Assembly: GCA_964457855.1 (NCBI GenBank)
Contig: CAYWEO010000005.1
Span: 487-64,486 of the forward strand
Direction: 5' to 3'
From: an uncultured Opitutales bacterium
GTDB taxonomy: Bacteria; Verrucomicrobiota; Verrucomicrobiia; Opitutales; CAYWEO01
Length of the DNA: 64,000 nucleotides
The translations under genes were made by a program, and so were the position numbers. How positions within the stretch are numbered: position 1 is the stretch's first letter; each line of letters opens with the position of its first letter. A model generated the notes under the pieces. The model made no database searches. It had not been told where the DNA came from and saw nothing but the letters and a program-made list of their open reading frames with translations. Positions 43,034-43,858 of this stretch are shown one piece after another.

Positions 43034-43858
43034 ATGAAAATAATATCTAAATTAACAAAGTGCGCGCTACCTGTAGCGCTTTTAACCGCTGGAGTCTGTT
43101 CTGCGCGTTGGTCTATAGATCCAGGTAATACGCAGAAGAATGAGTATCGGCGTCTCATACTAGATGAGGTGTGCAAAAAGGACCTAGCCATGCTTGTGCC
43201 AGCAGCCAAAAAATTTAACGAATTTGGTGTACTGTTGATCAGGCATTTGGATGTTGAAAAGGTTGCCGTAAGTGACCTGTGTGAGCTTGTGAAGGGTCTC
43301 ACAAGCGTACGTCTTATTTTGATAAATAGTTCAAATTTAAAAAGCACTGATTTGGAGTTAATTGCAAAAGCTTGTTCGCCAAAAGTCAGCAAGTTTGCCA
43401 TAAGCAATTGTCCTTTAATCGCAAACAATGGTGTAGAAAGCCTAGCTAAGGCTTTGGGTCAAAATCTGACTTATCTTTGGCTGCTTAAAAGCGGTGTAGG
43501 GCCCAAGGGCATCCTAGGGTTGGTAGAGCATGCAAAAAACTTGCGCGCGTTGGAATTTTATGACTGCAAGAACTTCACAGACAAGGCTGTAGGACATATT
43601 GTTCGTAAATGTCCTAGTCTGCAGTCGATCCACATGGAGGGATGCTCGTTAACAAACAAGTTACCAAATTTCATCGAGGAAAACTTAGATAAAGTACCCT
43701 TATTGCAGTTAGTTTACATGACAAAATGCGGGGTAGACGAAAAAAAGGAAAAAGCGTTGCAACGCATTCTCCTTGTGAGACATTTTAACAACTCCAAGAT
43801 AAAAAGTTCTAGCAATGCGAACTTGCAAAGCGAAAAGGAAATCGAGATTAAAAAATGA
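43034..43858 (+). CDS. secreted cysteine-containing (RNI/FBXL-type) LRR protein, paralog 1
   Basis: Signal peptide MKIISKLTKCALPVALLTAGVCSA|RW. Repeats such as CKNFTDKAVGHIVRKCPSLQSIHMEGCSLTN. Ends ..SEKEIEIKK*. Confidence 0.8.
   Translation: MKIISKLTKCALPVALLTAGVCSARWSIDPGNTQKNEYRRLILDEVCKKDLAMLVPAAKKFNEFGVLLIRHLDVEKVAVSDLCELVKGLTSVRLILINSSNLKSTDLELIAKACSPKVSKFAISNCPLIANNGVESLAKALGQNLTYLWLLKSGVGPKGILGLVEHAKNLRALEFYDCKNFTDKAVGHIVRKCPSLQSIHMEGCSLTNKLPNFIEENLDKVPLLQLVYMTKCGVDEKKEKALQRILLVRHFNNSKIKSSSNANLQSEKEIEIKK

Follow-up and report, generated by a model that had tools for sequence, protein, structure and literature searches.

A short charged peptide shared by the C-terminal tails of two putatively secreted protein families in an uncultured Opitutales bacterium

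The 64,000-nucleotide stretch of the 64,549-bp contig CAYWEO010000005.1 analyzed here (the window; assembly GCA_964457855.1, positions 487 to 64,486) belongs to an uncultured Opitutales bacterium. It encodes two families of proteins with signal-peptide-like N-termini that carry the same hydrophilic heptapeptide, K-E-[IV]-E-I-[KN]-K, in their C-terminal tails. One family has leucine-rich repeat bodies (LRR1, LRR2 and LRR3) and the other contains GKFW modules (GK1, GK3 and, with a degenerate copy, GK2). The description that suits the motif best is that of a putative C-terminal tag common to secreted effectors, so far confined to one uncultured genome. We tentatively read it as a lineage-private short linear motif, placed on flexible charged C-terminal tails of two unrelated exported families, that may act in the bacterium as a sorting or retention tag after Sec export.

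The motif and the proteins that carry it

The motif was scanned as E[IV]EI[KN]K in the six-frame translation of the window. Six matches are found, and each lies 0–26 residues upstream of a stop codon in an open reading frame of 300–618 codons between stops. The distance from motif to stop is 0 residues in LRR1 and LRR2, 5 in LRR3, 16 in GK1, and 26 and 15 for the two copies of GK3 (Table 1). Four progressively relaxed regular expressions detect no internal copy in the 18,357 residues encoded by the 49 genes of the window. A preliminary description of this DNA had presented the motif as shared and C-terminal. This is borne out, with all six copies in tails, and the C-termini quoted there are all exact on re-translation. 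As a control, chance matches to back-translated KEIEIKK were collected in unrelated genomes, in frame and in open reading frames of at least 100 residues. Among the matches listed, none of 84 coincides with the exact C-terminus and 4 of 84 fall no more than 16 residues from the stop; the corresponding count in the window is 4 of 4.

Pfam and NCBIfam give no match to any carrier. In the AlphaFold2 model of LRR1, which was modeled with its two paralogues, residues ~80–230 form a β/α solenoid with predicted local distance difference test (pLDDT) values of 70–90, and tail residues 247–274 have values below 50 and are predicted to be disordered. A Foldseek search with the LRR1 core retrieves KDM2A, FBXL17, SKP2, TIR1, NLRPs and the ribonuclease inhibitor (RI) LRRs with E values of 1e-6 to 1e-4. 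The bodies of LRR1–3 thus agree with the RI-type LRR in the models and in Foldseek (a β/α solenoid with repeats of ~26–29 residues) without a Pfam LRR match, and the label "CC-LRR" used for them in the preliminary description is reasonable. In GK1 the motif is predicted at the end of the K/E-rich helix, with disorder after it. The other disordered segments of the modeled LRR1 and GK1 are without the motif. Comparison of the LRR and GK bodies with hhalign gives a probability of 0.4%, and no homology is detectable. The description of the carriers as unrelated domain families therefore stands at the level of sequence; the folds may be less distinct, as the GK1 model shows an LRR-like β/α periodicity.

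The N-terminus of every carrier combines a basic n-region with a hydrophobic core and an AXA-like cleavage site of small residues, so the N-terminal signal peptides proposed earlier are signal-peptide-like in all cases by this heuristic. The public gene calls start LRR2 at Val14 (362 residues) and LRR1 at Met53 (222 residues). Both starts remove the conserved signal peptide, and automated annotation would therefore miss export. Before the LRR core of LRR1, at ~43150–43230 (residues ~40–66), the segment LILDEVCKKDLAMLVPAAKKFNEF has a faint likeness to an F-box. It gives no match to the Pfam F-box and model confidence is low there. The top structural match of LRR1 is the F-box/LRR chain of KDM2A in complex with SKP1.

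The motif is absent from housekeeping exported proteins such as Mip, NamZ, LptA and LptC. Several secreted orphans of the window serve as negative cases (Table 1). The protein at 20722–21804 had been counted as a deaminase-like carrier with a looser version of the motif, and this does not hold: isoleucines in its EKIEKIENK tail are spaced i,i+3, not i,i+2, and the tail fails every motif regular expression tried. An HxE ... PxCxxC arrangement in the same protein (HWHSEQ ... IPTCIRCG) would fit a deaminase-like site. Pfam and NCBIfam assign the protein to no family, and its tail is a tandem nine-residue repeat. The orphans at 21811–22488 and 57038–57991 have no K/E tail of this type.

Table 1. 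Coordinates of the motif copies, carriers, relatives, junction cassettes and repeats in the window
Feature	Position	Strand	Description
LRR1	43034-43858	+	Sec-type signal peptide, eukaryote-like RI/FBXL-type LRR core, disordered tail to EKEIEIKK and stop
LRR2	44170-45297	+	Paralogue of LRR1 and LRR3
LRR3	45586-46677	+	
GK1	1428-2915	+	Signal peptide, two GKFW modules, long K/E-rich helix; no significant fold match
GK2	3044-4501	+	Paralogue of GK1 (~50% amino acid identity)
GK3	32206-34002	-	Signal peptide unlike GK1/GK2; GKFW modules
Motif of LRR1	43832-43855	+	GAA AAG GAA ATC GAG ATT AAA AAA (EKEIEIKK), then stop
Motif of LRR2	45271-45294	+	EKEIEIKK, stop directly after
Motif of LRR3	46636-46659	+	NKEIEIKK, then NDNKK and stop
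Motif of GK1	2841-2864	+	EKEIEIKK, 16 residues before stop
Motif of GK2, degenerate	4442-4465	+	KKEEEIKK
Motif of GK3, first copy	32310-32287	-	DKEVEIKK
Motif of GK3, second copy	32277-32254	-	AKEIEINK
Single-module GK relative	31066-32076	-	GK1/GK2 signal peptide, K/E tail, motif absent (negative case)
Secreted orphan	20722-21804	-	Tail is EKIEKIENK twice, a different motif (negative case)
LRR 3' junction	43831-43968	+	Motif, stop, hairpin, intrinsic terminator (43934-43956); repeat family D4, alignment, terminator scan, RNA folds
LRR 3' junction, other copies	45270-45407; 46636-46773	+	91% identical; 62% identical
LRR 5' cassette	42979-43126	+	5' untranslated region and signal-peptide codons; repeat family D2
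LRR 5' cassette, other copies	44115-44262; 45531-45678	+	79-87% identical
GK 3' junction	2883-2978	+	Tail end, stop, terminator AAAACAGCAGTCGCGAGATTGCTGTTTTTTG; repeat family D12, inverted repeats I7/I8
GK 3' junction, other copies	4478-4573 (+); 32147-32250 (-); 1268-1363		1268-1363 is an orphan remnant without gene body
GK 5' cassette	1388-1528	+	Promoter region and signal peptide MRTKLFKQ.GIFCLALATALSAFGM; repeats D14, I1, I2
GK 5' cassette, other copies	3004-3144 (+); 31994-32151 (-)		92-95% identical
REP-like repeats, set 1	7946-8070, 25643-25769, 28713-28839, 56556-56679		
REP-like repeats, set 2	14802-14840, 20649-20687, 28664-28702, 34515-34553, 38460-38498, 61377-61415		
REP-like repeats, set 3	8212-8266, 14851-14905, 34566-34620, 38381-38435, 61299-61353, 61430-61484		

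Junction cassettes within families and peptide identity between them

The carrier genes are paralogues arrayed in tandem and joined by conserved junction cassettes; the 3' cassette has the motif at its 5' edge. The LRR genes share three DNA blocks: a 3' block that runs from the motif through the stop and hairpin to the terminator, an intergenic block, and a 5' block with the 5' untranslated region and the signal-peptide codons. The GK genes share their own pair of blocks, different from those of the LRR genes, and the conservation of their 3' junction (81–88%) extends through the stop codon and terminator. In sliding windows, identity between paralogues is 92–97% in the signal-peptide region and 78–93% in the 3' untranslated region, and 13–70% in the bodies. 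Between GK1 and GK2 the tail coding sequence is 55–63% identical and the terminator 92%. Within a family, the 132 nucleotides 3' of the motif give local-alignment scores of 50–97, compared with ~9–11 for dinucleotide shuffles, while the 120 nucleotides 5' of the motif show no strong homology in the same test. Since the motif copies share conserved non-coding junction DNA within a family, the independent evidence consists of two families and not of seven proteins. The seven proteins that the preliminary description listed as separate evidence reduce accordingly, the tail being inherited or homogenized with non-coding junction DNA.

Borrelia lipoprotein paralogue families and Mycoplasma vlp genes have conserved 5' leaders and 3' ends with variable middles. 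The arrays in the window are similar: the paralogues are in tandem, the DNA of promoter, signal peptide and 3' end is 78–97% identical, and the bodies are 13–70% identical. This architecture covers the copies within a family only, and leaves aside that the peptide recurs in a second family whose flanks are unrelated.

Two further elements of the window are related to the cassettes. A GK-type tail fragment at 1140–1363 (ending in KDIKKKDIKKKDGNEKENKNEE, then stop) is followed by the family terminator and has no gene body. It immediately precedes GK1 and was probably left behind when a paralogue was deleted. Its repeat unit is KDIKK, not EIEIKK, and the motif is absent. In the 5' region of the gene at 57038–57991 (minus strand), extending to ~58125, the signal-peptide DNA (MIKIGSNLTKCALVAALTLSAG) resembles the LRR signal-peptide cassette. 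This gene is a further low-GC secreted orphan and has no K/E tail. N-terminal modules too are therefore shared across unrelated bodies.

Between the two families the peptide is shared and the DNA is not. The flanks of LRR and GK genes on both sides of the motif align with scores of 7–12, compared with 8–12 for shuffled sequences, and no DNA homology is detected. The GK1 motif is encoded by GAG AAA GAA ATT GAA ATT AAA AAG, which differs from LRR1 at five synonymous and no non-synonymous positions. Given the codons that these low-GC genes prefer, two independent encodings of EKEIEIKK are expected to differ in 4.1 of 8 codons. The motif codons therefore retain no residual DNA similarity, and the identity is at the peptide level. 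We also permuted the residues of the non-LRR tails, keeping their K/E-rich composition. EKEIEIKK appears in any shuffled tail with P = 3e-4. Allowing for post-hoc choice of the word, the probability of any 8-mer shared with an LRR tail is 9e-4; it is 5e-3 for any shared 7-mer and 0.054 for any shared 6-mer. In this very small sample the peptide appears to be conserved between the families, or convergently acquired, and the motif is non-random and probably selected.

The same data bear on a reading without specific function, in which K/E/I-rich, slippage-prone 3' ends would be homogenized with their cassettes, and the identity between families would be chance or mutation-bias convergence picked post hoc. 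We consider this doubtful. It would account for the position of the motif within a DNA junction whose conservation continues into non-coding sequence, for the short tandem duplications common in the tails ((GAAAT[TC]) twice, giving EIEI; KDIKK twice; EKIEKIENK twice), for the degenerate copy of GK2, and for tail coding sequences that are less conserved between GK1 and GK2 than the terminator. The shared 6-mer is also not rare in shuffles. However, a shared 8-mer has a probability of about 1e-3 with any k-mer allowed, and all motif differences between the families are synonymous; these two results weaken the non-functional reading. In addition, the exact form of the motif is kept in LRR3, where identity of the 3' junction is down to 62%, and no internal copy occurs elsewhere in the window.

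Other explanations were rejected. The motif codons are unpaired in the predicted RNA folds, each family has its own hairpins and terminator, and the codons vary synonymously, which argues against an RNA- or DNA-level role. Read-through or frameshifting past the stop of LRR1 and LRR2 was rejected in view of the non-synonymous differences downstream, the insertions and deletions in LRR3, and the hairpins and terminator. Ribosome sliding on poly-A was dismissed by direct reading; the A-runs are only 5–6 nucleotides long and are not conserved.

Known C-terminal signals and the possible role of the motif

The preliminary description had set the motif apart from the known sorting signals, and the comparison agrees: the tails match no Pfam or NCBIfam model and contain no LPXTG, hydrophobic anchor, KDEL or KKXX. 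Proteins with LPXTG, PEP-CTERM (exosortase), GlyGly-CTERM (rhombosortase) and type IX secretion system (T9SS) signals are like the present carriers in combining a Sec signal peptide with a C-terminal tag across unrelated families. The sortase, exosortase and rhombosortase signals consist of a motif, a transmembrane helix and a basic cluster, whereas the tails here are wholly hydrophilic. No LP.TG is present, and the maximum 15-residue hydropathy in the last 40 residues is at most 0.69. No tail has the hydrophobic segment of PEP-CTERM or GlyGly-CTERM, and NCBIfam gives no match at E values up to 1. The T9SS signal is a folded β-sandwich domain of ~70–100 residues, and the tails here, which match no such domain in Pfam or NCBIfam, are predicted to be disordered or a single helix. 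The eukaryotic retrieval signals KDEL/HDEL and KKXX/KXKXX are short, charged, C-terminal and lysine-containing, as in this case. They are, however, read at fixed positions from the carboxylate, KDEL/HDEL as an exact terminal tetrapeptide and KKXX/KXKXX through lysines at -3 and at -4 or -5, while here lysines are at -1/-2 and the motif is up to 26 residues from the end. The last four residues of the carriers are EIKK, EIKK, DNKK, EQKK, ENEN and DQKN, with no lysine at -3, -4 or -5. Type I secretion substrates have no Sec signal peptide, usually contain RTX GGxGxD repeats and have adjacent genes for ABC, MFP and TolC proteins. The carriers have a Sec signal peptide, no RTX repeats and no adjacent transporter.

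The closest resemblances are to the E Block of type IV (Dot/Icm) substrates and, within families, to the conserved-ends architecture of variable surface-protein genes. E Block substrates are recognized in the cytoplasm and normally have no Sec signal peptide, while all carriers are signal-peptide-like by the heuristic used here. In Legionella the E Block consists of 3–6 acidic residues within 6–10, mostly 11–18 residues before the C-terminus, and the substrates that carry it differ in fold (PMC3096851). The similarity includes a short Glu-rich block up to about 25 residues from the C-terminus, the unrelated folds, the flexible or helical tails and the variable distance (PMC3096851). A Glu-rich block in the last 25–30 residues read by a coupling complex would fit E-K-E-I-E at 8–26 residues from the end. 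With three acidic residues in five (ExExE), it agrees with the published composition and position, so that the loose description formally applies (PMC3096851), and position -3 is hydrophobic in LRR1 and LRR2. The E Block is, however, a loose compositional pattern (EExxE, ExE) and the motif here is a fixed heptapeptide (PMC3096851). There is also no type IV secretion gene within the 64-kb window, and this organism is not known to have such a system. The gene content with mcsAB-clpC and full-length hprK, which we take to be non-Legionellales, is counted against this reading as well. Together with the Sec-type signal peptides, these points make an E Block translocation signal very improbable.

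Terminal lysines offer another comparison. C-terminal lysines of bacterial surface proteins, for example enolases, are reported to bind host plasminogen (PMC3210797, PMC8951703). LRR1–3 and GK1 likewise end in -KK. Unlike in that system, GK2 and GK3 do not end in lysine, the conserved part is KEIEI and not just the terminal lysine, and a vertebrate host is not established.

The reading that we tentatively favor is the bacterial sorting or retention tag. The genes of both families are arrayed in tandem within islands of low GC. In each family the motif travels with the junction cassette (motif, stop, terminator, next promoter and signal peptide) as the bodies diverge. The peptide itself may be kept by selection, with one common partner reading it as a docking tag. 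Recognition would take place on the bacterial side after Sec export, either to sort the protein once more, across the outer membrane, or to retain it at that membrane. We favor the bacterial side because every copy in both families lies in the last 26 residues despite the presence of other disordered segments.

Several observations weigh against this sorting or retention tag. No post-Sec sorting signal is known that consists of a short charged peptide and lacks both a membrane anchor and a folded domain. The evidence base is two independent families in one 64-kb window of one genome, and the only criterion for a signal peptide was a heuristic based on hydropathy and the n-region. The GK2 copy is degenerate and has lost its first isoleucine. 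The distance to the stop varies over 0–26 residues and GK3 has two copies; such variable placement and duplication would be expected of an interaction motif more than of a sorting signal at the terminus. The tails are slippage-prone and of low complexity, with KDIKK twice in the remnant and EKIEKIENK twice in 20722–21804. Four neighboring low-GC secreted orphans (31066–32076, 20722–21804, 21811–22488 and 57038–57991) are without the motif. Finally, none of the islands has an evident partner, transporter or protease beside it, where a co-occurring dedicated transporter or protease had been proposed as a check on the motif; the ABC protein encoded nearby is LptB.

A short linear motif directed at the host is only slightly less likely than bacterial post-Sec sorting or retention, although unlikely when taken by itself. 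The tail of a released protein would dock to a host protein common to both effector families and act as an adaptor-binding handle, with the LRR and GK bodies binding different targets. The bodies of the LRR family belong to the eukaryotic RI/FBXL type, the motif is located in disordered or flexible sequence, and the genes lie in low-GC islands by tRNA and tmRNA genes, as is often the case for acquired effector genes. Interaction motifs typically behave as seen here, with tandem duplication (GK3), a varying distance from the C-terminus and degeneracy in one paralogue (GK2). On the other hand, direct reading reveals no match to KDEL, KKXX, PDZ ligands, SUMO-interacting motifs (SIM), LC3-interacting regions (LIR) or the clathrin box. 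All copies are confined to the C-terminal tail though other disordered segments exist, and release from the bacterium is purely hypothetical.

Returning to the bacterial tag, its most novel form would be an undescribed kind of post-Sec tag. In this form, a seven-residue, fully hydrophilic peptide lacking membrane anchor and folded domain would be read by periplasmic or outer-membrane machinery of a probably host-associated diderm, and would serve to release or display eukaryote-like effectors. This form we regard as improbable.

Genomic setting and meaning of the finding

The window is chromosomal and derives from a diderm, with lptA/lptB, tolQ/tolR, mcsA-mcsB-clpC, hprK, glgC and dapAB. Carriers and their relatives have a G+C content of 38–41%, compared with 45–54% in the housekeeping genes. 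A word-indexed search of 5.8 billion proteins with LRR2, GK1 and LRR1 as queries returned only paralogues from the same contig or, from other samples, identical copies that belong to the same strain. The strain is also present in JGI 3300045131, SRR12261223 and SRR21799884/6. An exhaustive HMMER search of 1.84 billion representatives with a profile of the GK bodies returned only the three proteins of the window. Scans of Joint Genome Institute (JGI) metagenomes with the LRR and GK alignments gave no relatives. A sister species (JGI 3300077324) has 90.5% DNA identity over clpC, and cluster look-ups of the genes flanking the islands found no contigs of sister species. No mention of the peptide was found in the literature. 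As judged from these sequence comparisons, both families are orphan and private to this lineage in the collections searched.

All low-GC (0.38–0.41) orphan secreted genes adjoin genes for tRNA-Ser, two tRNA-Met or tmRNA (460–552, 34167–34240, 55836–55912 and 58437–58834), and this adjacency suggests island-like acquisition or hot spots. A 123-nucleotide direct repeat, D19, is present at 55581–55703 and 55735–55857. Its copies are 95% identical and 154 nucleotides apart, the second overlaps the end of a tRNA-Met gene, and the repeat could be an att-like duplication. The mcsA-mcsB-clpC operon and the full-length hprK directly after lptA-lptB (8344–12730; 49764–52271) are found here in a diderm with tolQ/tolR. 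Many genes are followed by intergenic palindromic repeats of several families, similar to repetitive extragenic palindromic (REP) elements and often combined into composite arrays (Table 1). One such array, AAGGCATTTTT..GGCAC..GTGCC..AAAAATGCCTT, occurs in six copies.

The general significance is limited by the two families and the one genome. If the motif is a mere by-product of the junction cassettes, it shows tandem effector arrays that keep their promoter, signal-peptide and 3'-end modules while the bodies diversify. If it is a true functional tag, it points to a sorting or docking partner of an undescribed kind that reads a short charged tag without an anchor. It would then identify the effectors of an uncultured lineage, in which secreted proteins are otherwise orphan, and a simple regular expression could find them.

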